The notes under the pieces were generated by a model, which saw nothing but the letters and a program-made list of their open reading frames with translations, searched no databases and was not told the DNA's origin. Shown piece by piece: positions 1,023 to 42,500 of a stretch of 64,000 nt of DNA (the first letter of the stretch is position 1; each line of letters begins with the position of its first letter). The DNA is from Candidatus Latescibacterota bacterium (GTDB lineage Bacteria > Latescibacterota > UBA2968), in the NCBI GenBank assembly GCA_965204745.1, contig OZ242010.1, positions 132,007 to 196,006 on the forward strand. The letters are read 5' to 3'. The translations under genes and the position numbers were made by a program.

Positions 1023-3188
1023 CTACTGACTACTGATTACTGTTGCCTTTCTCATCGCCCAGCGAATTTCCTCTGCGGTCGTATTCGGGTCCGAGGGGTT
1101 GATGAGGTTGCCGAAAATGTCTGCGCCCACCACATGTTTTCGCAGGCCGGGGCCGCGGAGGAGGGACGTGATGTGGATTTGCATGTGATAGCCGTAGTCG
1201 ATGCCATTTGTGGGGGCTTGCATCAGGGCTAAGGTGTAGTGATAGGGGGCGTTGAACAAGCGGTCTAAGCCGCGGAGGACATCGCGCACCACCATTGCGA
1301 GGTCGCGCCGTTGTGCGGCTTGCAAGTCCAACAGGCTCGGCGCGTGCGCCTTGGGGGTGATGATCACGTCGTAAGGGAACTGCGCGGCATACGGAACATA
1401 ACCCAGCGCGTGTGGGCGATCAGACACAACGCGCCGTCCGTCTTGGGATTCAATGCGGTTGGCGTCGCAAACAAAACAGCGCCCGGTTCTCTCGCGGTGG
1501 GACGCGAACCGCGCCAACTGCGGTTTCACCATCAGGTCCGGAATGTCGCCGTAGGCATAGACCTGCCCGTGCGGGTGGGGTTGCGAATTGCCCATCACCG
1601 CGCCGCGATTCTCAAAAATCAAGGGATAGGCGATCTCGGCCTTTTTCCCCAAGCGCGCGTAAATCTCTGCCCAGGCGTCGATGACGCGGACGAACTCGGC
1701 TAAGGACAAGGTGGACAATCGTTGCGCGTGATCGCGGCTATAGACCACGACTTCGCAGATGCCTCGGCAGGTGCGAGACGCATAAGGCCCCAGTTGTTCG
1801 CGGGTTTGGTAGGCGTCTAATTCCAACGCGGGAAAATCGTTCTCAAATGTCCACACGCCCTCGTAATTCGGATTCGCATCGCCGCGTGCGCGTGCGTTGC
1901 CGGGGCAGAGATAACAGTCGGGATGATAGGCGCGATCAGCAGATTCGTCCATCTCTTGCGTTTCTCCGTGCCAGGGCCTGTCTCGGCGATGGGCCGCGAT
2001 ATTGACCCACCTGTTCCAAAACGGATTGAACCGTTCCTCTTGCACGACCCGATACCCGTGCGGATGCAGGCGATGCCAGTGCCAAGCGGAGTCGATGATG
2101 TCGCGTAACGACTCTTGTGCGACCCAACCCAGTTCGCGCCGAATGCGGCTCGGATCCGCGATCAGCGTTGCCGGATCGCCCTGTCGGCGCGCACCAATCG
2201 CCGTGGGAATCGCATGCCCGGTGATGTCGCGTGCGGCTTCTACAATCTCCTTGACGCTCCAGCCATAGCCCATGCCGAGATTGTAAGTCGCGGACGGCCC
2301 GCCCAGCAACAACCCGTCCAAACTCTTGATATGGGCATCGGCTAATTCCACCACCGAGAGGTAATCGCGCACAGCCGTGCCGTCGGGCGTCGCGTAATCA
2401 TCGCCAAACAAGACGAGTTTGTCGCGTTGTCCCAACGCCACTTGCAAAATGAGGGGGATTAGATGCGTCTCGGGCGCGTGGTCTTCGCCGATCAAACGCG
2501 AGGGGTCCGCGCCCGCGGTATTGAAATACCGGAGGACGACATAAGGCGCGCCAGTGCGTTGCTCTGTGTAGTGCAACATGCGTTCCCCCATCATTTTTGT
2601 GATGCCATAGACGTTCAGGGGGATTTTCAGCATGGCGATATCTTCTTCGCACAATTTGAACGCGCTGTGTTTTTCGCACCACTTTAGCAGGGTGTCAAAA
2701 TTGACCGCCGCGGGCATCAACTGGCTGTGGTCAAAGCCCCCAGCTGCGATCCATCGTTGCGGATAATCCTCTTTCAATGGGAGGTGTTCTGCGCGGGGTT
2801 CGCCGTAAATTGCGGCGGTCGACGATTTTACGAGAGGCAACCCGCTGGCTATGTCCAGCAAGTTTTGAAATGCAACGACATTGTGATCAAAATACAGGCG
2901 CGGCGCGGTTTGGGATTCCCCGACCAAAATTTTGGCGGCAAAGTCGATGATCCCGCAAAACTCGTGGCGTTCAAAAACACAGGCCAGAGCATCGCGGTCG
3001 AGCAAACTGACATGCTCGAAACAAAATTGCTCTGGCCCATACACTTGTTCAAACAAGGTGACGACTTCCCGGTTGCCCGTCGACAAGTCGTCTAACACCA
3101 CCACGCGGCGATGATCTTCCAACAACCGCCGAACCGCATGGCTGCCAATATAACCCGCGCCCCCCGTCACCAAAACAGCATGCTCCAT
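1023..3188 (-). CDS. Bifunctional fusion: UDP-glucose 4-epimerase (GalE, N-terminal ~340 aa) fused to galactose-1-phosphate uridylyltransferase (GalT, C-terminal ~375 aa)
   Basis: The N-terminus has the NAD-binding VLVTGGAGYIGSH and a GalE fold. The C-terminus has the GalT hallmarks RFNPFWNRWVNIAAHRRDRPW, HPDCYLCPGN (Zn site) and FENRGAVMGNSQPHPHGQVYA (HxHxQ uridylyl-His motif). It is one continuous 721-aa ORF. Confidence 0.8.
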   Translation of the reverse strand: MEHAVLVTGGAGYIGSHAVRRLLEDHRRVVVLDDLSTGNREVVTLFEQVYGPEQFCFEHVSLLDRDALACVFERHEFCGIIDFAAKILVGESQTAPRLYFDHNVVAFQNLLDIASGLPLVKSSTAAIYGEPRAEHLPLKEDYPQRWIAAGGFDHSQLMPAAVNFDTLLKWCEKHSAFKLCEEDIAMLKIPLNVYGITKMMGERMLHYTEQRTGAPYVVLRYFNTAGADPSRLIGEDHAPETHLIPLILQVALGQRDKLVLFGDDYATPDGTAVRDYLSVVELADAHIKSLDGLLLGGPSATYNLGMGYGWSVKEIVEAARDITGHAIPTAIGARRQGDPATLIADPSRIRRELGWVAQESLRDIIDSAWHWHRLHPHGYRVVQEERFNPFWNRWVNIAAHRRDRPWHGETQEMDESADRAYHPDCYLCPGNARARGDANPNYEGVWTFENDFPALELDAYQTREQLGPYASRTCRGICEVVVYSRDHAQRLSTLSLAEFVRVIDAWAEIYARLGKKAEIAYPLIFENRGAVMGNSQPHPHGQVYAYGDIPDLMVKPQLARFASHRERTGRCFVCDANRIESQDGRRVVSDRPHALGYVPYAAQFPYDVIITPKAHAPSLLDLQAAQRRDLAMVVRDVLRGLDRLFNAPYHYTLALMQAPTNGIDYGYHMQIHITSLLRGPGLRKHVVGADIFGNLINPSDPNTTAEEIRWAMRKATVISSQ

Positions 3189-3231
3189 ACGTCAAACCTC
3201 TTTGTCTATTGATGCTTTTAGCCGCGCAATT

Positions 3232-4122
3232 TCATCGCGTTTCTTCAATGCGTTTGGCGATGAGCCGCTTTAATTCTGTAAAATCAGCAGGGACATATTT
3301 GGCGTTTCTGAGCAGATCCTTCGCGACCTCATTGATCTTTTCGCGTCCTTGTAGTTGCGTCCCATCTGTCGAGATGACTCGAAAATATCCGGAATTAATT
3401 ACCTGTGCGAGCACCCTTTTGCCGCTAACCCTATCCAACCAATCACCCGAGCCAAAGGCGAGTTGGTCGTTGCCATTTGTCATTTCCTCAAGACATTCCT
3501 CAAAGCGGCGTTCCACCTCTTCAGCAGAAACCGCATTCTCAACACGGATGCGATGTTGATCAAATTCGTTCGCCTGGTTCAATTTTTCCAAAGCGATTTC
3601 TTTGGAGGGAAAGTCATCGGGATTGGAAAATATTTTAATCCACTCCTCCTTTAGGTCTTCCCGGATAGAGATAATGACATGGTTCGCAACATCGAGAAAC
3701 AACCGCTTGTTGGCAAATTGTAGAATTTGTCGCGCCAGATCGTCTTGTTCGGCTTGGCAAAACCGCGACTGAATGAGATAGTTCGGATCTAAAAAATAGT
3801 TTTCGATCTCCCGTCGTCTCCAGACGAGTAGGTTGGATGTAGCAGGGTTCGGAAAATCGCGCCAGCAACGGTTTATGAACTCAATTTTGTGGTGATCGCG
3901 GTCGATCAAAAAATAATAGGTCGGATGGTGGGGGTGCAAAGCCTCCGCAACGCTTTTTACTGAATAGGCAGGGCCAAGAGGCTCTATGCGAAGGCGAGGG
4001 TCAAAAAGTTCACTGAGAACTTTGGGGTCAAAAGCATTCTGATCTTTCCCTTCGACAAAGAGAACATGTCGTGCCTGAAAGTGGACGCTTTCAGAACGGA
4101 TTCCCCTTCTAACGCCGATCAT
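3232..4122 (-). CDS. DUF4435 / OLD-type TOPRIM nuclease-like protein (AriB-like), ~296 aa
   Basis: The motifs VLFVEGKDQNAF, YYFLIDRDH and RREIENYFLDPNYL match the DUF4435/TOPRIM pattern. The start ATG at 4122 overlaps the stop of the upstream ATPase gene (ATGA overlap). The track ORF 3232-4332 has an N-terminal read-through. Confidence 0.6.
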   Translation of the reverse strand: MIGVRRGIRSESVHFQARHVLFVEGKDQNAFDPKVLSELFDPRLRIEPLGPAYSVKSVAEALHPHHPTYYFLIDRDHHKIEFINRCWRDFPNPATSNLLVWRRREIENYFLDPNYLIQSRFCQAEQDDLARQILQFANKRLFLDVANHVIISIREDLKEEWIKIFSNPDDFPSKEIALEKLNQANEFDQHRIRVENAVSAEEVERRFEECLEEMTNGNDQLAFGSGDWLDRVSGKRVLAQVINSGYFRVISTDGTQLQGREKINEVAKDLLRNAKYVPADFTELKRLIAKRIEETR

Positions 4123-5183
4123 GTGCCATCCTCCTGTTCTTCCACCAAGAGAATGCGCCGATCTTCGGCAACCGAGTCCATGATCTCTTCGGAATGGGTT
4201 GCGATGATATATTGATTTTTCGGTGCCAAGTCCACGAGATCTTTGACAAAAGTGCGGTGCCATTGGGCATTCAGGTGCAACTCTGGTTCGTCGATAAACA
4301 CGACCGACGGGTTGTTCTTCGTATGATCCCACACCAAGAACAAAGTCGAAATGATTTCCTTTTGTCCAGAACTCAGACCGTCAAACGTAAATGATTCTCC
4401 GCCGCGCTCGGGTTGCACGCGGAAATCAAAGGTGTTGTCAGGAGACGGGCGGAGTTTACCGATGGTGCCGCGTGCATAACGCGCCATCAACGCATTGAGT
4501 TGCTCTATCGTATCGTCCGGCTCTCGATCTTCCACAGATTCAAAGAGTTGTGCCTTTCCCATCATAGAACGCAAAATCCGCAACTTAAATTCACTCATCG
4601 GCCTGCGTCTCATTCTTGGCAACCGGTCTCGGTCCACCAGCATGCCGAGTTCTGGATTTCCCTCTTGAACTTTGCGATAGCTGTGGAACAAGAGAAAGGT
4701 ATTCTCGACAACTGGGTTGGGCGTAAAGCCACAGATCGCGTTTATGAAATCGTCAAGATCGCGTTCTGAAACAGACCGTTCATTTGCCACCATTTTTTTT
4801 TCAAGCGATTTACCAGATATAGTGCCGTCGCCACGCCGATCTATCCGAATTTGCACCTTGCCCAATGCCTCGCCAAAGGCGATGTCGCCGGCAATTTCCG
4901 CACATTGTGCATCCGATCTGATCAGCAAGTCGGGCACATCCACACTTGAATAATAGTCGGTCAAGTCGGTGAAAGAAAAATTCTCTTCCTCGAGCGTTGC
5001 CGCCAAAAGCAATAGCGAGCAACACTCAATAATTGCTGTCTTGCCGATCCCGTTCTCGCTACCCATCACGAGGATATCCGGATCGCCGGACATTTTAGGC
5101 GGGGGAAAGTGCAACTCGAGTTCGTCAATGCCCTTGTAATTTTGGATGGCTATTCGCCTGATCTGGATGGACATTTTTTTCAT
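4119..5183 (-). CDS. ABC-type ATPase of the AAA_15/AAA_21 (OLD/SMC-like) class, AriA-like, ~354 aa
   Basis: It has Walker A GSENGIGKT, signature LSSGQKE, Walker B VVFIDEPELHLN and H-loop IIATHSEE. A strong SD 'GAGGAGG' lies 5 nt upstream of the ATG at 5183 (MKKMSIQIRRIAIQNYKGI...). Only 13 bp separate it from the uvrB stop. Confidence 0.65.
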   Translation of the reverse strand: MKKMSIQIRRIAIQNYKGIDELELHFPPPKMSGDPDILVMGSENGIGKTAIIECCSLLLLAATLEEENFSFTDLTDYYSSVDVPDLLIRSDAQCAEIAGDIAFGEALGKVQIRIDRRGDGTISGKSLEKKMVANERSVSERDLDDFINAICGFTPNPVVENTFLLFHSYRKVQEGNPELGMLVDRDRLPRMRRRPMSEFKLRILRSMMGKAQLFESVEDREPDDTIEQLNALMARYARGTIGKLRPSPDNTFDFRVQPERGGESFTFDGLSSGQKEIISTLFLVWDHTKNNPSVVFIDEPELHLNAQWHRTFVKDLVDLAPKNQYIIATHSEEIMDSVAEDRRILLVEEQEDGT

Positions 5184-5196
5184 GATGACCTCCTCG

Positions 5197-7185
5197 TTAC
5201 GCAATCTCTGCTTTTAGCCGCGCAATTTCATCGCGGTAGTGCGCGGCTTTTTCAAACTCTAAGTTTTCGGCGGCTTCGGCCATTTGGCGCGTGAGTTCTT
5301 CGATCAGCTCCAGTTGATTGTCGCTGTCCAAATAGGCTGCGGATTCCTCGGCGACCAGGGGCAGGTCTTCGGCTTGCTCGTCGGCCACCGCTGTCGATTG
5401 GAGAATCTCCTCTCGGGTCTTGTACAGGGTCTTGGGGGTGATGCCGTGGTTGGCATTGTACGCCTCTTGCAATGCGCGGCGGCGATTGGTCTCGTCGATG
5501 GCGCGGCGCATCGAATCCGTCACCTTATCCGCGTACATGATCACCGTGCCTTCCGCATTGCGGGCCGCGCGCCCGGCCGTTTGAATCAGCGAGCGTTCGG
5601 ACCGCAAAAAGCCCTCCTTATCCGCGTCTAAAATCGCCACCAGCGACACTTCGGGCAAATCCAAGCCCTCGCGCAACAAGTTCACGCCCACGAGCACGTC
5701 AAACTCGCCCAAGCGCAAATCGCGGATGATCGCCACGCGCTCGAGCGAATCCACATCCGAGTGCATATAGCGCGCGCCGATGCCCAACTCGCGCATGTAT
5801 TCCGACAAGTCTTCGGCCATGCGCTTGGTCAGGGTCGTCACCAACACGCGATGCCCGCTCTCCACGCGCTGCCGGGCCTCTTCGATGAGATCATCGACCT
5901 GCCCGCGCACCGGGCGCACGATCATTTTGGGATCGAGCAAGCCGGTGGGCCGAATCACCTGCTCGACCACCACGCCCTCGCAGCGTTCCAACTCGTAATC
6001 CGCGGGCGTGGCCGACATGAAAACGACCTGCTTGGCCTTTTGTTCAAACTCCTCGAAATACAGGGGGCGATTGTCCAGCGCGGCGGGCAATCTGAACCCG
6101 TGCTCGATCAACACCTCTTTGCGAGACCGGTCCCCGTTCCACATGCCGCGCAACTGCGGCACTGTGACGTGGGATTCGTCCAGCACGATCAGAAAATCGT
6201 CTGAAAAATAATCCAACAACACATAAGGTGCTTCCCCGGGCGCGCGCCCGTCGATGTAGCGCGAATAATTTTCAATGCCCTGGCAGAACCCGATCTCGCG
6301 CATCATCTCGATATCGTAGCGCGTCCGCATTTCCAACCGCTGTGCCTCCAACAATTTGCCCTGGTTGTGAAACGCCTCCAATTGTTGGGTCAAATCAAAT
6401 TCGATCTTTGCTATGGCTCTCTCGATCCGATTGCCGCTGGTGACGAAGTGTTTGGCCGGATAAATGACGATGCGGTCGCGTTCTTCGATCACCTCGCCCG
6501 TTACCGGATGCACGATGCACAGCGCGTCGACCTCGTCGCCAAAAAACTCCACGCGCACCGGATGCTCGCGCTCGGGCGGATAAATTTCGACCACATCGCC
6601 GCGCACCCGAAACGCGGCCGGCGCGAGTTCTATGTCATTGCGCGCAAAGTGAATGTCCACGAGTTTTCGCAACATGGCATCGCGGTCCATCTCTGCGCCG
6701 CGATCCAACACGACGAGGTGATCCTCGTATTCCGTGGGGTTGCCAATGCCGTAAATGCACGACACACTCGCCACGATGATCACGTCTTGCCGCTCCATCA
6801 ACGCACTGGTCGCGCGCAGGCGCAAGCGGTTGATTTCATCGTTGATATCCGATTCTTTTTCAATAAATGTATCCGTCACGGGTTTGTACGCTTCCGGCTG
6901 GTAATAGTCGTAATACGAGATGAAATACTCCACGGCATTGCGCGGGAAAAAGCTGCGAAACTCCCCGTAGAGTTGCGCGGCCAGGGTCTTGTTGTGGGAA
7001 ATCACGAGCGTGGGCTTTTGAATGGCTTCGATCACTTTTGACATGGAAAACGTCTTTCCCGTGCCCGTGGCGCCCAACAAAGTCTGGTACCGCATGCCCG
7101 TGCGAATGCCCTGGGCGAGTTCTTCGATGGCCCGCGGCTGATCCCCGGCCGGCTCAAAAGGCGATACCACTTCAAATTTCGGCAT
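5197..7185 (-). CDS. uvrB: Excinuclease ABC subunit B (UvrB)
   Basis: [23 protein letters not shown]...GATGTGKTF, helicase motifs, and a C-terminal UVR domain ([19 protein letters not shown]). The start is chosen at the conserved MPKF (7185) rather than the ORF start 7242. Confidence 0.9.
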
Positions 7186-7325
7186 GGCGATGTTCCAAAG
7201 AAAGTGGGGCGTGTTTTCATCCGTCACCCAAGAATATAACATCTCGGGTTTCTGTCAAAGCAAAACCCGGCCAGTGCCCGTGGTTTTTTGGTTTTTTGCG
7301 TGCCATTTTTGATTATCATGATTTT

Positions 7326-7646
7326 ATGACCGAACAGACGCGCACAAAAATTCTGCAATCCACACCGACCGGCATTCGCAAACTCGACCACAAACGCCTG
7401 CGCGCCCAACTGCATCGCGCCGCGCCCCCAGTTGATTACGACCGATATATGCGATCCAAGGCGTGGCAAATCAAACGGCGAAAATTCCTCGCCCACTTCA
7501 ACTGCCAATGCGCCCTGTGCGGCAGCAAAGACCATCTGCACGTCCACCACTTGCACTATGAGACCCTGGGCAACGAGCGCGTGGAAGACGTCCTCGTGTG
7601 TTGCAGGCGGTGCCATTTCCTCGCGCATAAGAAAGGGGAGAGGTGA
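7326..7646 (+). CDS. Small HNH-like zinc-finger protein (~107 aa)
   Basis: CQCALCGSKDHLHVHHLHYETLGNERVEDVLVCCRRCHFLAH fits an HNH/Zn-ribbon pattern (CxxC...HH...N/E...CxxCH..H). The ATG is at 7326 and the C-terminal residues come from a heptamer array. The gene is divergent from uvrB. Confidence 0.45.
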   Translation: MTEQTRTKILQSTPTGIRKLDHKRLRAQLHRAAPPVDYDRYMRSKAWQIKRRKFLAHFNCQCALCGSKDHLHVHHLHYETLGNERVEDVLVCCRRCHFLAHKKGER

Positions 7647-9309: not shown

Positions 9310-10530
9310 ATGAAAGGAAATATCATGTCCACGGGAAAACCCGTAACCCTCGCACTGGTCGGATGCGGCGGCATTGCTGGCGCGCATCTGCGGCGGTATG
9401 ACGAACTCCTCGCCCGCGGCGAAGACCGATTTCGCATTGTCGCCACAGTGGATAGCGATTTTGACCGTGCAACCGCGTGTGCAGATCAGATCAGCGGCAA
9501 AACCGGCTGGGCCGTGACGCCCTATGCCTCGGTGGAAGACCTGCTCAACTCGGGCACGGCCCTCGACGGCGCGGATATTTGCAGTCCGCACGGCCTCCAC
9601 CATGTCCTCGCTTGCGAACTGCTCGCGGGTGGGGTGCATATCCTCTGCGAAAAGCCCATTGGCGTGACCGTGAAAGCCACGAAACAAATCATCGCCACAG
9701 CCAAACGCCACGACAGGATCGCCGCCAATGCCGAACAGTGCCGCCGTAGCATTGGGCAACGCACCATTCACTGGGCCTTTCACAACGGCCTGCTCGGGGA
9801 TGCGCGGTTGTGGTACGCCATCCGATCCGGCTGGCAAGACCCCGCGGATCACCCGGACTGGCACTGGCGCGTGGATCGCAAACTCGGGGGTTGCGGCATG
9901 GTGATGGACAGCGGCGCGCACTGGGTAGATACGATGCGCTATTGGTTTGGGGAGATCGACAGCGTGTACGCCCGAGTCGAGCAACTCGAAGCGCGCCCGC
10001 ACAAAAAAGGCGACCGTCTGGTGGCAGACGCCCGCGAGGATTTTTGGACGAGCATTTTCAATTTTGCCAATGGCGTGATCGGCACCTGGTCGTGGACTAT
10101 CAGCGCGCCCGGCAAGGGCTTTACCCAACTCGCGCTCACCGGCACCAAGGGCAGCATTGTCGATAGCGACATTTTCCACCCGGCAGCGTCGCAAGCGCGG
10201 GGCGAGTGCCATCTGCTCGACGGAACGACCTACGGCATGTCCCAACTGCAAGCCATGTTCCTCGACACCCTCGGCCCACGCGACAAGGACCGCCTTTTTC
10301 CCTACGGCCTCACCGATGGCATGGCGATTGAATTGTGGGATTTTATCGACGCCCTCAGCACCGGGCGCGATGTTGAAATCGACGCGACAGAGGGCCTCAA
10401 GAGCAAAGCCGTGAGCGAGGCGATCTACGAATCGGGCACGAGCGGACAGGTCGTCAAAGTGGCCAACGTGATCTCCGGCAAGGTCGATGCTTACCAGCGC
10501 GATGTCGATCAAATGTGGGGATTGGATTGA
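9310..10530 (+). CDS. Gfo/Idh/MocA family oxidoreductase
   Basis: N-terminal Rossmann VTLALVGCGGIAGAHL and a C-terminal GFO_IDH_MocA-like region. It lies 22 bp after the sulfatase stop with an 'aaaggaaatatc' RBS, so it is probably co-operonic. Confidence 0.8.
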   Translation: MKGNIMSTGKPVTLALVGCGGIAGAHLRRYDELLARGEDRFRIVATVDSDFDRATACADQISGKTGWAVTPYASVEDLLNSGTALDGADICSPHGLHHVLACELLAGGVHILCEKPIGVTVKATKQIIATAKRHDRIAANAEQCRRSIGQRTIHWAFHNGLLGDARLWYAIRSGWQDPADHPDWHWRVDRKLGGCGMVMDSGAHWVDTMRYWFGEIDSVYARVEQLEARPHKKGDRLVADAREDFWTSIFNFANGVIGTWSWTISAPGKGFTQLALTGTKGSIVDSDIFHPAASQARGECHLLDGTTYGMSQLQAMFLDTLGPRDKDRLFPYGLTDGMAIELWDFIDALSTGRDVEIDATEGLKSKAVSEAIYESGTSGQVVKVANVISGKVDAYQRDVDQMWGLD

Positions 10531-30553: not shown

Positions 30554-33500
30554 CTAGGGGGGTAGGTCCCAATTCCCTATCGCAGTTGTTTCGCCTGTCG
30601 AGCCATAGATGGCGGCGAAGATGCGGAAATCGTCATAGTCAATTTGCCCATCGCCATTGAGATCGTACAGGGCGTCATATCGCTTTTGACCGAGCCGCGA
30701 TTCGTACTTGACCACAAAGTTCGAGAAGTCGGCGAAATTCACAACCCCATCGCCATTGAAGTCGGGCGAGGGGAGTGAGACCTCGAGCGTGAAGGGCAGC
30801 GAGGCCGTATCGCCATCGGCTTCCAACGCGCTCAAGGTGTAGGTCGCCTGGGCCTTAGCCTCGGTCGGCAGACCGGAAAGGGTGCGCGTGGTCGGGTCAA
30901 ACGATAGGCCCTCTGGGAGGAATGGCAAGAGGATATAGACCAACATCCCATCGTCATTGCTCGCTTGCGGGAGCGTTAGGGACGCGATCTCCTGATTGAC
31001 GAGATAGCTCTGTGGATCGATAGTCGTATCGCCAAAGGTCGGCATCCAATTCTGGACTTCAAGGGTGAACAGGAGATGCACTTCATCGCCATTGCCGTCT
31101 GTTGCGGTCAGCGTGTAGGTCGTCTCGTCCATGGCCTTGATCGGTGTGCCAGACGCGATGCGCGTCTCGGCGTCAAAGGTCAAGCCCTCGGGCAGATCGG
31201 GGAGTAGCGCGTAGGTCAGCGGTTTATCGCCACCGGTTGCCGGCGGTAGGGTCAAGGGATCGATCTTTTGATATTGCACATAGCCCTGTGCGGCGACGGT
31301 CGTCTCGCCGAAGGTCGGTATCGGATCGGTCATTACAGAGAGGATGAACATCAAGGTCGCCTCGTCGCCATTTCTGTCTGTTGCGGTCAGCGTATAGGTC
31401 GTGTCGGCTATCGCCTCGAGCGGCGTGCCAGACAGCACCCGCGTCTTTTTATCGAAACTCAAGCCCTCGGGCAGATCCGGGGTCAGCGCGTAGGTCAGTG
31501 GTTTATCGCCACCGGTCGCTTGTGGGAGCGTCAGGGACTCGATCTCTTGCTTTCGCATATAGGCTTGGGCGGCCACACTCGCATCGCCAAAAGAGGGTAT
31601 CGGGTTCGCGATGACGGTGAGGAAGAAACTCAGGCCGGCCTCATCGCCATCTTCTTCTGTGGCGGTTAGGGTGTAGATCGCTTTTTTTATTGCCTTAAGT
31701 GGTGTGCCAGACACAGTGAGCGTCTCCGCGTCAAAGGTCAAGCCCTCGGGCAGATCCGGCAGGCTGTACGTTAATGTTCTCATCGTCTCATCGCCATATA
31801 GCACCGCGGCGGGCAGGGTCAGCGGTTTAATGGCCCTGTGTTGATAGTAGCTTTGCGGATCAACGGCATCGGTGAAGGTCAGTTCCGTATCCGGTTCTGG
31901 TTCTGGCTCGGGTTCTGGCTCTGGCTCGGGTTCTGGTTCTGGCTCGGGTTCTGGAGTAGCGGGCCTCTCGGGGGGATCGTCTTCCTCAATGGTTAGGGTC
32001 ACGGGAGACGCTAGCGACGCCAGATTGCCACCCGTCACCGTTGCAGACACGGTCACGCGCTTGTCAGGCTCATTGAACGAGTTGTCCACGGCTGTGATCG
32101 TCACGGTGCCCGTGCTCGTCGTTTGCCCCGCCGCGACGGTCAGCGTGGTCGTGGTCGATAGCGTGAAGTCATCCACAGACGATTCAGCCTCAGTTGAGAC
32201 AGTGATCGTCGTCGCTTCGGTTGCGGGCCGATCTAGCGTCGCCGTTACTGTCGAAACTCCGCCATTCTCCGTAATCGCCACCGGAGACAAAACCAACGTC
32301 ACCTGCGGCACGTCGTCATCGGTAATCGTCAGCGTCGCAGAAGTGACCGATCCCGCGCCCTGGCTGTTGGATGGCGTGCCCGTCACGGTTACCGTCTTGC
32401 TCCCCGAAGCGATATTGTTGTTCACTGTCGTGATCGTCACGATGCCCGTGCTCGTCGTTTGCCCGGCCGCGACGGTCAGCGTGGTCGCCGTGCTCAGAGT
32501 GTAGTCGGATGATGTAGGCACGGAAACCGCGATCGTCGTCGCCTCGCTCGACGGGTGAGACAGCGTCGCTGTCACTGTCGAAACCCCGCCGTTCTCCGAA
32601 ATCGACGCAGGCGACACAACCATCGTCACGGCCGGCGCAACATCGTCGTCCGTCAGCGTCAAAGAGCCCCCGGTCACACTGCCCGCGCCTTGGTCGTTGC
32701 GCGCCACACCGGTCACGACCACGTTGCGTGGAGGCGCGTCTCGGTTGTTGTCCACGGACGTGATGATCACCGTGTCCGCAGTGTTCGCAGTTTGCCCGGC
32801 CGCGATGGCAATCGTCGAATCCGTCGCCCCCACCGTGTAAGCACCAGGCACCGAGCGCACCGTGATCGTCGTGATCGCGCTCGACTTGTGAGACAGCGTC
32901 GCCGTGATCGTCGAGACCGCGCCGTTCTCTGAAATCGACGAAGGATCCGGCGTCAACATCACCGTCGGTGGATCGTCGTCATCTGTGATCGTCAGGGGCT
33001 CGGAAGACGATAGCGACGCCAGATTGCCAGCCGCCACCGTTGCAGACACGGTCACGCGCTTGTTCGGCGCATCGGTCGTATCGTTCACCGCCGTGATCGT
33101 CACGGTACCGGTGCTCGTCGTCACACTCGCCGCGATAGTCAGCGTGGTCGTGGCCGATAACGTGAAGTCACCCGCAACCGCAGGCGACACAGCCAGTGCT
33201 GAAACCGTGATCGTCGTCGCCGCGGTCGCAGTGCGATCCAGCGTCGCTGTGATCGTGGAAACCCCGCCATTCTCCGAAATCGACGACGGAGACAAAACCA
33301 ACATCACCTGCGCCACGTCGTCATCGGTAATCGTCAGCGTCGCAGGAGTGACCGACGACCCTACGCCCACGCTGTTGGATGGCGTGCCCGTCACGGTCAC
33401 CGTCTTGCTCCCCGAAGCGATATTGTTGTTCACCGTCGTGATCGTCACGGTGCCCGTGCTCGTCGTTTGCCCGGCCGAGACGGTCAGCGTGGTCGCCGTG

Positions 33501-36500
33501 CTCAATGTGTAGTCGGATGACGTAGGCACGGAAACCGTAATCGTCGTCGCCGCGCTCGATGGGCGATTCAGCGTCGCCGTCACAGTTGAAACCTCAATGT
33601 TCTCCGAAATTGACGACGGAGACACTGCCATCGTCACGTCCGGCGCGGCCTCATCCTCTGTGATCGTCAAAGTCGCGGCGGTCACATTGCCCGCGCCTTG
33701 GGCGTTGCCCGCCACACCGGACACGGTCACACGCTTGTCACGCGCATGGGTCGTGTTGTTCACGGCCGTGATCGTCACACTGCCCGTGCTCGTCGTCTCG
33801 CCCGCCGCGACGGTCAGCGTCTTCGTGGTCGATAGCGTGAAATCGCCCGCAACCGCAGGCGACACAGCCTCTGCTGATACCGTGATCGTCGTCGCCGCGC
33901 TTGACTTGTGAGACAGCGTCGCCGTGATCGTGGAAACGCCGCTCGCCTCTGAAATCGACGCGGGCGACAGCGATAGTGCCACCGTCGGCGCGGCATCATC
34001 GTCGGTGATCGTCAGGGTCACATCAGACGGGGCAGACGCCAGATTGCCAGCCGCCACCGTTGCAGACACGGTCACGCGCTTATTCGGCGCATCGGTCGTA
34101 TCGTTCACCGAGGTGATCGTCACGGTGCCCGTGCTCGTCGTCACACTCGCCGCGATAGTCAGCGTGGTCGTGGCCGATAGCGTGAAATCGCCCGCAACCG
34201 CAGGCGACACAGCCTCCGCTGAAACCGTGATCGTCGTCGCCGTGGTCGCGGGGCGATTTAGCGTCGCCGTTACGGTCGAAACCTTAGCATTTTCAGAAAT
34301 CGACGCAGGAGACAAAACCAACGTCACCTGTGCCACGTCGTCATCGGTAATCGTCAGCGTCGCATCCGTGACCGATCCCGTGCCCACGCTGTTGGATGGC
34401 GTGCCCGTCACGGTCACCATCCTGTCCCCCGAAGCGTTGTTGTTGTCCACCGTCGTGATGACCACCATGTCCGACGCGTTCGCCGTTTGCCCGGCCGCGA
34501 TGACAATCGTCGAATCCGTCGCCCCCACCGTGTAAGCACCAGGCACCGAGCGCACGGTGATCGTCGTCGCCGCGCTCGATGGGCGATTCAGCGTCGCCGT
34601 CACGGTTGAAACCTCGCCAGTCTCCGCAATCGACGTCGGGGACACTGCTATCGTCACGGCCGGCGCGGCCTCATCCTCTGTGATCGTCAACGCCGTGCCG
34701 GTCACACTACTGCCCACGCCTTGGTCATTACGTGGCACAACGGACACGGTCACACTGTTGTCCGGCGCATGGGTCGTGTTGTCCACTGCTGTGATGAGCA
34801 CCGTATCAGACGTGTTCGCCGTTTGCCCGGCCGCGATGACAATCGTCGAATCCGTAGCACCCACCGTGTAAGTACCAGGCACCGAGCGCACGGTGATCGT
34901 CGTCGCTTCGCTCGACTTGTGAGACAAGGTCGCCGTGATCGTGGAAACGCCGCTCGCCTCTGAAATTGACGCGGGCGATAGCGACAGGGCCACCGTCGGC
35001 GCGTCATCATCGTCGGTGATCGTCAGGGTCACGTCAGACGGGGCCGACGCCAGATTGCCAACCGCCACCGTTGCAGACACGGTTACGCGCTTGTTCGGCG
35101 CATCGGTCGTATCGTTCACCGAGGTGATCGTCACGGTACCGGTGCTCGTCGTCACACTCGCCGCGATAGTCAGCGTGGTCGTGGCCGATAGCGTGAAGTC
35201 ACCCGCAACCGCAGGCGATACAGCCTCCGCTGAAACCGTGATCGTCGTCGCATCGGTCGCGGGGCGATCCAGCGTCGCTGTGATCGTGGAAACCCCGCCA
35301 TTCTCCGAAATCGACGTCGGAGACAAAACCAACGTCACCTGCGCCACGTCGTCATCGGTAATCGTCAGCGTCGCATCCGTGACCGATCCCGTGCCCACGC
35401 TGTTGGATGGCGTGCCCGTCACGCTCACCATCCTGTCCCCCGAAGCGTTGTTGTTGTCCACCGTCGTGATGATCACCGTGTCCGATGTGTTCGCCGTTTG
35501 CCCGGCCGCGATGACAATCGTCGAATCCGTAGCCCCCACCGTGTAAGCACCAGGCACCGAGCGCACGGTGATCGTCGTCGCCGCGCTCGATGGGCGATTC
35601 AGCGTCGCCGTCACGGTTGAAACCGCGACGTTCTCCGAAATTGACGACGGTGACACCGCCATCGTCACGTCCGGCGGGGCCTCATCCTCTGTGATCGTCA
35701 AAGTCGCGTCGGGCACATTGCCCACGCCTTGGGCATTGCCCGCCACACCGGATACGGTCACGCGCTTGTTCGGCGCATGGGTCGTGTTGTTCACCGCCGT
35801 GATCGTCACACTGCCCGTGCTCGTCGTCTCGCCTGCCGCGAAGGTCAGTGTCTTCGTGGTCGATAGCGTGAAATCGCCCGCAACCGCAGGCGATACAGCC
35901 TCCGCTGATACCGTGATCGTCGTCGCCGCGCTCGATTCGTGAGACAAGGTCGCCGTGATCGTGGAAATGCCGCTCGCCTCTGAAATCGACGCGGGCGACA
36001 GCGACAGCGCCACCGTCGGCGCGGCATCATCGTCTGTGATCATCAGGGTCACATCAGACGGGGCCGACGCCATATTGCCACCCGCCGCCGTTCCGGACAC
36101 GGTTACGCGCTTGTCCGGCGCATCGGTCGTATCATTCACCGATGTGATCGTCACGGTACCCGTGCTCGCCGTCGCATTCGCCGCAATCGTCAGCGTGGTC
36201 GCGGCCGATAGCGTGAAGTCACCCGCAACCGCAGGCGATACAGCCTCCGCTGAAACCGTGATCGTCGTCGCCGTGGTCGCGGGGCGATTTAGCGTCGCCG
36301 TTACGGTCGAAACCTCGGCATTTTCAGAAATCGACGTCGGAGACAAAACCAACGTCGCCTGTGCCACGTCGTCATCGGTAATCGTCAGCGTCGCATCAGT
36401 GACCGACGACCCTACGCCCACGCTGTTAGTTGGCGTGCCCGTCACGGTTACCGTCTTGTCCCCCGAAGCGATGTTGTTGTTCACCGTCGTGATCGTCACG

Positions 36501-39500
36501 CTGCCGGTGCTCGTCGTTTGCCCGGCCGCGACGGTCAGCGTCTTCGCCGTGCTCAGCATGTAATCGCCTACAACCGCAGGTGACACAGGCGTTACCGAAA
36601 CCGTGATCGTCGTCGCCGCGCTCGATGGGCGATTCAGCGTCGCCGTCACGGTTGAAACTGCGACGTTCTCCGAAATTGACGTAGGTGCCACCGCCATCGT
36701 TACGTCCGGCGCGGCCTCATCCTCTGAGATCGTCAAAGTCGCGTCGGGCACATTGCCCACGCCTTGGGCATTGCCCGCCGCACCGGATACGGTCACGCGC
36801 TTGTTCGGCGCATGGGTCGTGTTGTTCACCGCCGTGATCGTCACACTGCCCGTGCTCGTCGTCTCGCCTGCCGCGAAGGTCAGTGTCTTCGTGTTCGATA
36901 GCGTGAAATCGCCCGCAACCGCAGGCGATACAGCCTCCGCTGATACCGTGATCGTCGTCGCTTCGCTCGACTTGTGAGACAAGGTCGCCGTGATCGTGGA
37001 AATGCCGCTCGCCTCCGAAATCGACGCGGGCGACAGCGATAGTGCCACCGTCGGCGCGGCCTCATCGTCGGTGATCGTCAGCGTCACATCAGACGGGGCA
37101 GACGCCAGATTGCCAGCCGCCACCGTTCCGGACACGGTCACGCGCTTGTTGGGCGCATCGGTCGTATCATTCACCGATGTGATCGTCACGCTACCCGTGC
37201 TCGTCGTCACACTCGCCGCGATAGTCAGCGTGGTCGTGGCCGATAGCGTGAAGTCACCCGCAACCGCAGGCGATACAGCCTCCGCTGAAACCGTGATCGT
37301 CGTCGCCGTGGTCGCGGGGCGATTTAGCGTCGCCGTTACGGTCGAAACCTTGGCATTTTCAGAAATCGACGCAGGAGACAAAACCAACGTCACCTTTGCC
37401 ACGTCGTCATCGGTAATCGTCAGCGTCGCAGCCGTGACCGATCCCGTGCCCACGCTGTTGGATGGCGTGCCCGTCACGGTCGCCATCCTGTCCCCCGAAG
37501 CGATGTTGTTGTCCGCCGTCGTGATGACCACCGTGTCCGATGTGTTCGCCGTTTGCCCGGCCGCGATGACAATCGTCGAATCCATCCCCACCGTGTAAGC
37601 ACCGGTCACGGGCCGCACGGTGATCGTCGTCGCCGCGCTTGATGGGCGATTCAGCGTCGCTGTCACGGTTGAAACCGCGCCATTCTCAGAAATTGACGTA
37701 GGCACCACTGCCATCGTCACGTCCGGCGGGTCCTCATCCTCTGTGATCGTCAACGCCGTGCCGGTCACACTACTGCCCACGCCTTGGTCGTTGCTCACCT
37801 CAACGGGCACGGTCACACTGTTGTTCGGCGCATGGGTCGTGTTGTCCACTGCTGTGATGAGCACCGTGTCCGTCGCGTTCGCCGTTTGCCCGGCCGCGAT
37901 GACAATCGTCGAATCCGTCGCCCCCACCGTGTAAGCACCAGGCACCGAGCGCACGGTGATCGTCGTGATCTCGCTCGACTTGTGAGACAAGGTCGCCGTG
38001 ATCGTGGAAACGCCGCTCGCCTCTGAAATCGACGCGGGCGATAGCGTCAGTGCCACCGTCGGCGCGGCCTCATCGTCGGTGATCGTCAGCGTCACGTCAG
38101 ACGGGGCCGACGCCAGATTGCCAGCCGCCACCGTTCCGGACACGGTCACGCGCTTGTTCGGCGCATCGGTCGTATCATTCACCGATGTGATCGTCACGGT
38201 ACCGGTGCTCGCCGTCGCATTCGCCGCAATCGTCAGCGTCTTCGTGGTCGATAGCATGAAATCGCCCGCAACCGCAGGCGACACAGCCTCCGCTGAAACC
38301 GTGATCGTCGTCGCATCGGTCGCGGGGCGATTTAGTGTCGCCGTTACGGTCGAAACCTTGGCATTTTCAGAAATCGACGCCGGAGACAAAACCAACGTCA
38401 CCTGCGCCATGTCGTCATCGGTAATCGTCAGCGTCGCAGCCGTGACCGATCCCGTGCCCACGCTGTTGGATGGCGTGCCCGTCACGGTCACCATCCTGGC
38501 CCCCGAAGCGATGGCGTTGTCCACCGTCGTGATGAGCACCGTATCCGTCGCGTTCGCCGTTTGCCCGGCCGCGATGACAATCGTCGAATCCGTCGCACCC
38601 ACCGTGTAAGCACCAGGCACCGAGCGCACGGTGATCGTCGTCGCCGCGCTCGATGGGCGAGACAGCGTCGCCGTCACGGTTGAAACCGCGACGGTCTCCG
38701 AAATTGACGTAGGTGACACTGCTATCGTCACGTCCGGCGGGTCCTCATCTTCTGTGATCGTCAACGCCGTGCCGGTCACACTACTGCCCACGCCTTGGTC
38801 GTTACGTGGCACAACGGACACGGTCACACTGTTGTTAGGCGCATGAATCATGTTGTCCACTGCTGTGATGAGCACCGTGTCCGTCGCGTTCGCCGTTTGT
38901 CCGGCCGCGATGACAATCGTCGAATCCGTCGCCCCCACCGTGTAAGCCCCGGCCACCGGGCGCACGGTGATCGTCGTCGCTTCGCTCGATTCGTGAGACA
39001 GGGTCGCCGTGATCGTGGAAATGCCGCTCGCCTCCGAAATCGACGCGGGCGACAGCGACAGTGCCACCGTCGGCGCGGCATCATCGTCTGTAATCGTCAG
39101 GGTCACGTCAGACGGGGCAGACGCCATATTGCCACCCGTCGCCGTTCCGGACACGGTTACGCGCTTGTCCGGCGCATCGGTCGTATTGTTCACCGATGTG
39201 ATCGTCACGATGCCCGTGCTCGTCGTCTCACTCGCCGCAATCGTCAGCGTCTTCGCGGCCGATAGCGTGAAATCGCCCGCAACCGCAGGCGATACAGCCT
39301 CCGCTGATACCGTGATCGTCGTCGCCTCGGTCGCGGGGCGATTTAGTGTCGCCGTTACGGTCGAAACCTTGGCATTTTCAGAAATCGACGTCGGAGACAA
39401 AACCAACGTCACCTGTGCCACGTCGTCATCGGTAATCGTCAGCGTCGCAGCCGTGACCGACGACCCTACGCCCACGCTGTTAGCTGGCGTGCCCGTCACG

Positions 39501-42500
39501 GTTACCGTCTTGTCCCCCGAAGCGATGTTGTTGTTCACCGTCGTGATCGTCACGGTGCCGGTGCTCGTCGTCTCGCCCGCCGCTATCGTCAGCGTCTTCG
39601 CCGTGCTCAGCGTGTAATCGCCTACAACCGCAGGTAATACAGGCGTTACTGAAACCGTGATCGTCGTCGCCGCGCTTGATGGGCGATTCAGCGTCGCCGT
39701 CACGGTTGAAACTGCGACGTTCTCCGAAATCGACGTAGGCGCCACCGCCATCGTTACCTCCGGCGCGGCCTCATCCTCTGTGATCGTCAAAGTCGCGTCG
39801 GGCACATTGCCCACGCCTTGGGCATTGCCCGCCGCACCGGATACGGTCACGCGCTTGTTCGGCGCATGGGTCGTGTTGTTCACGGCCGTGATCGTCACAC
39901 TGCCCGTGCTCGTCGTCTCGCCTGCCGCGAAGGTCAGTGTCTTCATGGTCGATAGCGTGAAATCGCCCGCAACCGCAGGCGATACAGCCTCCGCTGATAC
40001 CGTGATCGTCGTCGCTTCGCTCGACTTGTGAGACAAGGTCGCCGTGATCGTGGAAACGCCGCTCGCCTCTGAAATTGACGCGGGCGACAGCGACAGCGCC
40101 ACCGTCGGCGCGGCCTCATCGTCGGTGATCGTCAGCGTCACATCAGACGGGGCAGACGCCAGATTGCCAGCCGCCACCGTTGCAGACACGGTCACGCGCT
40201 TGTCCGGCGCATCGGTCGTATCGTTCACCGATGTGATCGTCACGCTGCCCGTGCTCGCCGTCGCATTCGCCGCAATCGTCAGCGTGGTCGCGGCCGATAG
40301 CGTGAAATCACCCGCAACCGCAGGCGATACAGCCTCCGCTGAAACCGTGATCGTCGTCGCCGTGGTCGCGGGGCGATTTAGTGTCGCCGTTATGGTCGAA
40401 ACCTTGGCATTTTCAGAAATCGACGTCGGAGACAAAACCAACGTCACCTGCGCCATGTCGTCATCGGTAATCGTCAGCGTCGCAGCCGTGACCGATCCCG
40501 TGCCCACGCTGTTGGATGGCGTGCCCGTCACGGTCACCATCCTGGCCCCCGAAGCGATGTTGTTGTCCACCGTCGTGATGACCACCATGTCCGATGTGTT
40601 CGCCGTTTGCTCGGCTGCGATGACAATCGTCGAATCCGTCGCCCCCACCGTGTAAGCACCAGGCACCGAGCGCACGGTGATCGTCGTCGCCGCGCTCGAT
40701 GGGCGATTCAGCGTCGCCGTCACGGTTGAAACCGCGCCAGTCTCCGCAATCGACGTAGGTGACACCGCCATCGTCACGTCCGGCGGGTCCTCATCCTCTG
40801 TGATCGTCAACGCCGTGCCGGTCACACTACTGCCCACGCCTTGGTCGTTGCTCACCTCAACGGGCACGGTCACACTGTTGTTCGGCGCATGAATCATGTT
40901 GTCCACTGCTGTGATGAGCACCGTATCCGTCGCGTTCGCCGTTTGCCCGGCCGCGATGACAATCGTCGAATCCGTCGCACCCACCGTGTAAGCACCAGGC
41001 ACCGAGCGCACGGTGATCGTCGTCGCCGCGCTCGATTCGTGAGACAGGGTCGCCGTGATCGTGGAAACGCCGCTCGCCTCTGAAATTGACGCGGGCGACA
41101 GCGACAGTGCCACCGTCGGCGCGGCCTCATCGTCGGTGATCGTTAGGGTCACGGCAGACGGGGCAGACGCCATATTGCCACCCGTCGCTGTTCCAGACAC
41201 GGTTACGCGCTTGTCCGGTGCATCGGTCGTATCGTTCACCGATGTGATCGTCACGGTACCGGTGCTCGTCGTCACACTCGCCGCGATAGTCAGCGTGGTC
41301 GCGGTCGATAGCGTGAAATTGCCCGCAACCGCAGGCGATACAGCCTCCGCTGATACCGTGATCGTCGTCGCCTCGGTCGCGGGGCGATCTAGCGTCGCCG
41401 TTACGGTCGAAACCTCGGCATTTTCAGAAATCGACGCAGGAGACAAAATCAACATCACCTGCGCCACGTCGTCATCGGCAATCGTCAGCGTCGCAGGAGT
41501 GACCGACGACCCTACGCCCACGCTGTTAGTTGGCGTGCCCGTCACGGTTACCGTCTTGTCCCCCGAAGCGATGTTGTTGTTCACCGTCGTGATCGTCACG
41601 CTGCCCGTGCTCGTCGTCTCGCCCGCCGCGACGGTCAGCGTCTTGTCCGTGCTCAGCGTGTAATCGCCTACAACCGCAGGTAACACAGGCGTTACTGAAA
41701 CCGTGATCGTCGTCGCCGCGCTCGATGGGCGAGACAGCGTCGCCGTCACGGTCGAAACCGCGCCAGTCTCCGCAATTGACGTAGGCTCCACTGCTATCGT
41801 CACGTCCGGCGCGGCCTCATCCTCTGTGATCGTCAACGCCGTGCCGGTCACAATACTGCCCACGCCTTGGTCGTTATGTGGCACAACGGGCACGGTCACA
41901 CTGTTGTTCGGCGCATGGGTCGTGTTGTCCACCGCTGTGATGATCACCGTGTCCGTCGCGTTCGCCGTTTGCCCGGCCGCGATGACAATCGTCGAATCCG
42001 TCGCCCCCACCGTGTAAGCACCAGGCACCGAGCGCACGGTGATCGTCGTCGCTTCGCTCGACTTGTGAGACAAGGTCGCCGTGATCGTGGAAACGCCGCT
42101 CGCCTCTGAAATCGACGCGGGCGATAGGGTCAGTGCCACCGTCGGCGCGGCATCATCGTCGGTGATCGTCAGGGTCACATCATCCGGGGCCGACGCCAGA
42201 TTGCCAGCCGCCACCGTTCCGGACACGGTCACGCGCTTGTCCGGTGCATCGGTCGTATCGTTCACCGATGTGATCGTCACGGTGCCCGTGCTCGTCGTCA
42301 CACTCGCCGCGATAGTCAGCGTGGTCGTGGCCGATAGCGTGAAATCGCCCGCAACCGCAGGTGATACAGCCTCCGCTGAAACCGTGATCGTCGTCGCCGT
42401 GGTCGCGGGGCGATTTAGTGTCGCCGTTACGGTCGAAACCTTGGCATTTTCAGAAATCGACGTCGGAGACAAAATCAACGTCACCTGCGCCACGTCGTCA

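Follow-up and report, generated by a model that had tools for sequence, protein, structure and literature searches.

We analysed a 64,000-nucleotide stretch of DNA (hereafter the window; contig OZ242010.1, positions 132,007 to 196,006, assembly GCA_965204745.1) from a Candidatus Latescibacterota bacterium and found, directly behind uvrB on the minus strand, two adjacent genes for an ABC ATPase and a DUF4435/Toprim nuclease that represent a divergent PARIS-family module whose ATPase is compact and resembles PtuA. This assignment is well supported by hidden Markov models (HMMs), a published detection rule and fold comparison, and the defence system itself is ordinary, being of a known kind that standard tools can call. 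In related genomes of one Gemmatimonadota lineage the site behind uvrB is a variable defence hotspot, in which a type II restriction-modification pair and the PARIS pair occur in either order and with losses. Taking expression and mechanism together with origin, we regard it as probable that the two genes are an anti-phage module left over from a small defence island (N6_N4 methyltransferase, MjaI-like endonuclease and PARIS pair), that they are transcribed by read-through from uvrB, and that they would act by sequestration and release of the nuclease, as in the Escherichia coli system.

Identification of the PARIS-like gene pair

The first gene (4119-5183, minus strand, with its ATG at 5183) encodes an AriA-like or PtuA-like ABC ATPase of 354 aa, in which Walker A (GSENGIGKT), the signature motif (LSSGQ), Walker B VVFIDEPELHLN (FIDEPELHLN) and the H-loop (ATHSEE) are all present. 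Its stop codon and the start codon of the second gene share 4 nt in the sequence ATGA (ggcacATGAtcggc). The second gene (3232-4122, minus strand) encodes an AriB-like DUF4435/Toprim nuclease of 296 aa with the motifs VLFVEGKD, FLIDRDH and EIENYFL. A first-pass annotation, made from the sequence alone, had described these genes and motifs, the ATGA overlap and a gap of 13 nt to uvrB, all of which were confirmed in the sequence, and had proposed a PARIS-like AriA/AriB pair, which was borne out by Pfam, PADLOC, the detection rule and the fold.

Pfam scans of the ATPase gave 56.6 bits for AAA_15 and 51.4 bits for AAA_21, and its partner matched DUF4435 at 33.1 bits; each score exceeds the Pfam gathering cut-off. 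With the PADLOC models the ATPase matched PtuA (3e-22), the AriAB fusion model (1e-21) and AriA (2e-18), and the DUF4435 protein matched AriAB (6e-14), AriB (1e-9) and no further families. The two HMM collections thus do not place the ATPase in an unrelated ABC family. The published rule (Rousset et al. 2022, PMC9122126) calls PARIS where a protein that scores at least 32 bits for AAA_15 or at least 27 bits for AAA_21 adjoins one that scores at least 27 bits for DUF4435, and the three Pfam scores of the pair lie above all of these thresholds. The top fold match of the DUF4435 protein was AriB, with about 14% identity in the structural alignment. The relationship to AriB is visible only through the Pfam and PADLOC HMMs and the fold, the fold comparison bridging the low sequence similarity.

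The acidic Toprim residues, whose absence would have spoken against the first-pass annotation, were found to be present: in 35 homologues E24, D74, D76, E105 and E107 never vary, and D27 hardly does. The metal-binding residues of AriB are E26, D30, D88, E90 and E122 (PMC11464382), and the acidic pattern of the DUF4435 protein corresponds to them by motif order and spacing, not by residue-level structural alignment. The ATPase gene lies directly upstream of the DUF4435 gene in 100% of about 80 loci with enough flanking sequence. The G+C content of the module is 47-50%, compared with 55-62% in its flanks. The same gene arrangement was recovered in two independent samples, L093 (ENA) and L094 (Logan), both conspecific with the window, which rules out an assembly artefact.

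A variable defence hotspot behind uvrB

uvrB (5197-7185, minus strand) encodes a housekeeping excinuclease subunit of 662 aa with all UvrB Pfam domains. It anchors the hotspot on its upstream side and is probably where transcription of the module originates. For comparison we used Gemmatimonadota metagenome-assembled and complete genomes whose UvrB is 89-100% identical to that of the window; the 120 UvrB proteins concerned all end in RDEIARLK(A/S)E(V/I)A. In the window and in L093 (UvrB 100% and 99.85%), uvrB is followed by the ATPase gene, the DUF4435 gene and a galE-galT fusion, while L092 (UvrB 94%) has the ATPase gene, the DUF4435 gene, an N6_N4 methyltransferase gene, galE-galT and galK. 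Four contigs of a sister species (L001, L002, L089 and L177; UvrB 94%), all from one metagenome sample, have the ATPase gene, a broken DUF4435 gene and the genes for the methyltransferase and an MjaI-like endonuclease. The order is reversed in L091, L175 and L176 (UvrB about 90%), where the methyltransferase gene begins 7 nt after the uvrB stop and is followed by the genes for the endonuclease, the ATPase and the DUF4435 protein and by nadC. L178 (UvrB 90%) has the methyltransferase gene and nadC, and L090 (UvrB 93%) has none of these genes behind uvrB.

The downstream boundary of the hotspot in the sub-lineage of the window is the galE-galT fusion (1023-3188, minus strand; 721 aa; Pfam Epimerase and GalP_UDP_transf), which is conserved behind the cassettes of L092 and L093. 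This single open reading frame (ORF) joins the domains of a GalE-type UDP-glucose 4-epimerase and of galactose-1-phosphate uridylyltransferase (GalT).

The association with uvrB is genuine, but it is confined to this lineage. Among the matches listed, the pair is absent from 80 uvrB loci of other phyla (identity up to 62%), and none of 80 metagenome loci encoding the pair has uvrB upstream of it. The best explanation for the position beside uvrB is an insertion hotspot particular to the lineage, and not a functional connection with nucleotide excision repair.

Divergence and decay of the pair

Relative to L091, the synonymous divergence (dS) of the window amounts to 1.01 in uvrB, 0.91 in the ATPase gene and 1.04 in the DUF4435 gene; relative to L092 it is 0.25, 0.42 and 0.37, respectively, with 0.34 for galE-galT. 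The equal dS of module and uvrB relative to L091 indicates long co-divergence and co-inheritance, and a recent horizontal acquisition, which the low G+C content might suggest, was rejected on this ground for the whole lineage. Protein identity is about 70% for the module and 90% for UvrB, and the ratio of nonsynonymous to synonymous divergence (dN/dS) is 0.18 and 0.06, respectively, so that the lower identity of the module results from weaker constraint, not from recent transfer.

Within the species of the window, DNA differences from L093 reach 6.7% in 3400-5101, compared with about 0.7% in uvrB and 1.5% in galE-galT; the module is thus about 5-10 times more diverged than its flanks, and the divergent block ends inside the module. 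In this comparison the dS of the ATPase gene is 0.135 against 0.034 for uvrB (4 times higher), and dN/dS of the DUF4435 gene is 0.64. Such hyper-divergence between conspecifics suggests import of an allele or rapid evolution.

In the sister species the nuclease gene has been inactivated in at least three independent ways: by insertion sequences (IS) at the same site but with different IS content (L089, 10070-13153; L177, 10070-12226), by a 1-nt frameshift (L001, 7059-7948) and by a 3' truncation (L002, 7059-7790). The ATPase gene is intact in all four contigs. Repeated loss of the nuclease with retention of the ATPase is as expected if the effector is costly.

Homologues in other phyla and linkage to BREX

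Both the ATPase and the DUF4435 family have hundreds of members at 57-92% identity in a range of phyla, with examples in Akkermansia, Desulfobotulus, Spirochaeta and Gammaproteobacteria. Outside Gemmatimonadota, the closest homologues (L003-L008, L095-L122 and others; 57-71% identity) are almost always embedded in type-3 BREX loci. Among about 31 metagenome loci whose DUF4435 protein is at least 57% identical, about 29 have the pair between a gene for a pglXI-like methyltransferase and brxHII, followed by pglZ. In the BREX operon of Akkermansia muciniphila the order is brxC, an N6_N4-type pglX, the ATPase gene, the DUF4435 gene, a SNF2 helicase gene and pglZ. More distant relatives of the pair occur mostly in non-BREX contexts, and no homologue of the DUF4435 protein was found in phage or plasmid collections. 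PARIS inside a BREX island is already known from Salmonella (PMC11341690), and PARIS senses anti-restriction proteins (PMC9122126, PMC11464382). The consistent physical linkage of this subfamily to restriction-modification and BREX systems fits such an "anti-anti-restriction" role.

Two side observations concern these homologues. The ATPase was seen on 775 contigs of A. muciniphila. In L134, a cargo segment (4732-6789) has been inserted into the 5' end of brxHII, immediately behind the PARIS-like pair, and is absent from the close relative L120; it consists of a C-terminal pglXI fragment (27 of 35 aa identical to the end of the resident gene) and genes for HATPase_c, DUF4325 (STAS-like) and PIN-domain proteins.

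The uvrB junction and transcription of the pair

Between the uvrB stop codon (TAA) and the ATG of the ATPase gene lies a spacer of 13 nt, cgaGGAGGtcatc (5184-5196, minus strand), which carries a Shine-Dalgarno sequence. The junction is identical in L001, L089 and L093, and in L092 three bases are changed (one in the uvrB stop codon and two in the spacer). No terminator-like or promoter-like site was found between the body of uvrB and the ATPase gene, that is, in the 13-nt gap and the uvrB 3' end. Since the gap offers neither room nor signal for a terminator and the uvrB 3' end has no promoter-like site, co-transcription of module and uvrB, as put forward by the first-pass annotation, is plausible from the sequence, and read-through from the uvrB promoter is the most likely mode of transcription. 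The accompanying statement that the module is translationally coupled to uvrB was too strong, because the ATPase gene has its own Shine-Dalgarno sequence behind a 13-nt gap.

Upstream of uvrB a consensus scan found a promoter-like site, TTGACA-16-TATTCT (7231-7258, minus strand; 10 of 12 matches), which is the only good one on its strand and is conserved solely in the conspecific L093. A palindrome scan found CGGGTTT-N11-AAACCCG (7245-7269, 7-bp arms), which encloses the -35 hexamer; this palindrome occurs in the species of the window only.

Direct repeats around the pair

The neighbours of the module are housekeeping genes, and the sole feature resembling an att pair is a perfect 27-nt direct repeat that brackets it. 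Copy 1 (CGCGATGAAATTGCGCGGCTAAAAGCA; 5209-5235, minus strand) lies in the uvrB 3' end and encodes RDEIARLKA of the UVR domain. Copy 2 (3213-3239, minus strand) runs across the end of the DUF4435 gene, whose last codons and stop are formed by the first 8 nt of this copy (CGCGATGA). The copies are 1,996 nt apart from start to start, and the chance expectation for such a repeat is 0 matches, even with up to three mismatches. Copy 2 is perfect in L093 and L094 as well. Both copies carry the codons CGG CTA, shared by L175; L001, L089, L091 and L092 have AGA TTA and L090 has CGA TTA. The presence of species-specific codons in both copies points to gene conversion or a recent event.

A second case was found in the clade with about 90% UvrB identity. 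In L091, L175 and L176 an imperfect repeat of about 51 nt, derived from the 3' end of the MjaI-like endonuclease gene, brackets the cassette (L091, 12269-12320 and 14290-14340), and in each of these genomes the two copies vary together. Only one copy (10075-10125) is present in L178, between the orphan methyltransferase gene and nadC, with no endonuclease gene and no PARIS pair. When loci were tested systematically for flanking repeats, those of both cases scored 27 to 30, the null distribution having a mean of 8 and a 99th percentile of 14. About 40 of the 49 loci tested stayed within the null. The idea that all copies of the cassette have flanking repeats was rejected, since scores beyond the null were confined to the window and L093, the L091 group and L134. 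The repeat of L134 was discarded as a PARIS-associated feature, as it belongs to the second cargo segment with the pglXI fragment.

Two further interpretations were considered and dropped. Copy 2 is not the displaced original end of uvrB (which would read LKASIDKEV before the stop), as the 120 closest UvrB proteins, like the present one, all finish with AEVA, AEIA or SEVA. Possible remnants of the uvrB 3' end behind the cassettes of L001 and L092 had some resemblance to it by eye, and their alignment scores fell within the null of shuffled and reversed sequences. Marks of an integrase-borne island or an integron were likewise not found, there being no tRNA gene in the window and no conserved non-coding end motif across loci. 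We read the repeats as footprints of one-sided homologous recombination and illegitimate joining, with later conversion, in a recombining island.

Proposed mechanism and alternative explanations

In the proposed mechanism, the module would be transcribed by read-through from uvrB and translated from its own Shine-Dalgarno sequences. As in E. coli PARIS (PMC11464382, PMC9122126), an oligomer of the ATPase would keep the nuclease inactive; a phage protein, typically an anti-restriction DNA mimic, would bind the ATPase and free the nuclease; and the freed nuclease would cut host nucleic acid, probably tRNA, so that translation stops and the infection is aborted.

Several points weigh against this reading. 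The ATPase reaches the solved E. coli AriA only at an E value of 1e-4 and only in the C-terminus, it is 110 aa shorter than AriA, and it is structurally nearer to PtuA; the DUF4435 protein did not reach the solved AriB in PDB searches with phmmer or with a 36-sequence profile. An internal promoter within the uvrB 3' end may take the place of read-through. The breakage of the nuclease gene in the sister species indicates that selection to keep the system is not strong everywhere. Finally, the BREX-embedded PARIS of Salmonella was inactive under the conditions tested (PMC11341690), so that family membership is no guarantee of function.

Two other functions of the pair were considered. It could be an accessory or guard of a restriction system (type 3 BREX or the type II pair) whose partner has been lost here, leaving a nearly functionless orphan in decay. 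The position between pglXI and brxHII in most of the closest homologues from other phyla, the methyltransferase and MjaI-like endonuclease genes beside the pair in relatives, the multiple inactivations in the sister species and the dN/dS of 0.64 relative to L093 are in favour of this explanation, but neither ORF is disrupted in the window, L093 or L092, and a dN/dS of 0.16-0.28 over longer distances indicates purifying selection; we consider it unlikely. A system like Septu/PtuAB or OLD/Gabija, in which the ATPase controls a nuclease that degrades DNA and not tRNA, appears somewhat less likely still: the affinity of the ATPase to PtuA agrees with it, but the partner is not an HNH protein (PtuB), the ATPase and the Toprim nuclease are separate proteins with no GajB/UvrD-type helicase, and the PADLOC families of the partner are AriAB and AriB only, with AriB as the top fold match.

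Two other proposals concern the control and the origin of the module, and we think both improbable. uvrB is regulated by LexA in E. coli, and with the terminator-free 13-nt gap and the tight junction retained in several relatives, the pair might be a toxin system placed purposely under SOS control through co-transcription with a LexA-regulated uvrB. The first-pass annotation had likewise suggested DNA-damage-inducible control and named the region upstream of uvrB as the place to look for a LexA box; this found no support, as nine known LexA-box types gave no match at up to one mismatch in 7150-7480, although the motif of the host phylum may differ, and no paper defining a LexA motif for Gemmatimonadota was found in the literature. 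Moreover, the sequence upstream of uvrB can be aligned within the species but not among relatives whose UvrB is 90-94% identical, and L090 has nothing of the sort behind uvrB. The restriction-modification methyltransferase gene packed 7 nt behind uvrB in the 90% clade argues for constitutive read-through, because a methyltransferase would need steady and not stress-only expression, and the uvrB promoter therefore probably provides it. As to origin, the pair might be a promoter-less cassette that moves actively, by insertion at the 3' ends of expressed genes and with duplication of 27-50 nt of the target 3' end. Both bracketing repeats, the co-variation of the longer one, its single cassette-free copy in L178 and a unit between the repeats that is scarcely more than a Shine-Dalgarno sequence and two ORFs would agree with this. 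Against it, most of the loci tested lack such repeats, neither a recombinase nor a tRNA gene nor a conserved end motif was found, the dS equal to that of uvrB speaks for vertical residence, the L134 repeat is tied to other cargo, and one-sided homologous recombination, microhomology deletion and gene conversion also yield repeats of this kind. If it were true, it would mean an integrase-free "operon-hitchhiking" within and between defence islands, in which recombination keeps the repeats identical.

Other features of the window

A giant ORF (30554-51370, minus strand; 6,938 aa) contains about 32 tandem units of 345 nt (115 aa) at 33045-43891, He_PIG Ig-like domains and a C-terminal dockerin/EF-hand region, and probably encodes a huge surface adhesin.

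Significance

PARIS is present in about 5% of genomes (PMC9122126). The present analysis documents a defence hotspot immediately behind uvrB in a phylum that has received little study. It also shows that this PARIS subfamily moves together with restriction systems (type-3 BREX and a type II pair), in line with the anti-anti-restriction model. The intact, hyper-diverged, IS-, frameshift- and truncation-broken pairs form a natural series for the cost and turnover of abortive-infection effectors, and the flanking repeats hint at how promoter-less cassettes get shuffled.

Comparison with known systems

The pair shares with the OLD family (P2 Old, class 2 OLD and GajA) the combination of ABC ATPase and Toprim nuclease, but it consists of two separate ORFs and not of one polypeptide, and, unlike class 2 OLD and Gabija, it has no adjacent UvrD-like helicase; its sole helicase-like neighbour is a bona fide UvrB, which is conserved in relatives without the module. 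Septu and the retron type I-A resemble it in the ATPase, PtuA being the best structural and HMM match of the head domain. It differs from them in its partner, a Toprim/DUF4435 protein without an HNH match, and in having neither a reverse transcriptase nor a non-coding RNA (no Rfam match).

PARIS in the type 1 BREX island of Salmonella D23580 (PMC11341690) resembles the closest homologues of the module in that ariAB-like genes lie in or beside a BREX or restriction-modification locus. In those homologues, however, the locus is a type-3 BREX (pglXI-brxHII), and the window retains no BREX or restriction-modification gene. Compared with PARIS of E. coli B185 (P4 satellite; structures 8UX9 and 8V46), the window module has a shorter ATPase (354 aa against 464 aa in AriA) that is nearer to PtuA, lies on the chromosome behind uvrB and not on a satellite or prophage, and has a nuclease with about 14% structural-alignment identity to AriB and no sequence-level match. 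What it has in common with the E. coli B185 system is the cassette of an ABC ATPase gene followed by a DUF4435/Toprim gene, detection by the Pfam rule, a nuclease fold nearest to AriB, the acidic Toprim pattern and the link to restriction systems.

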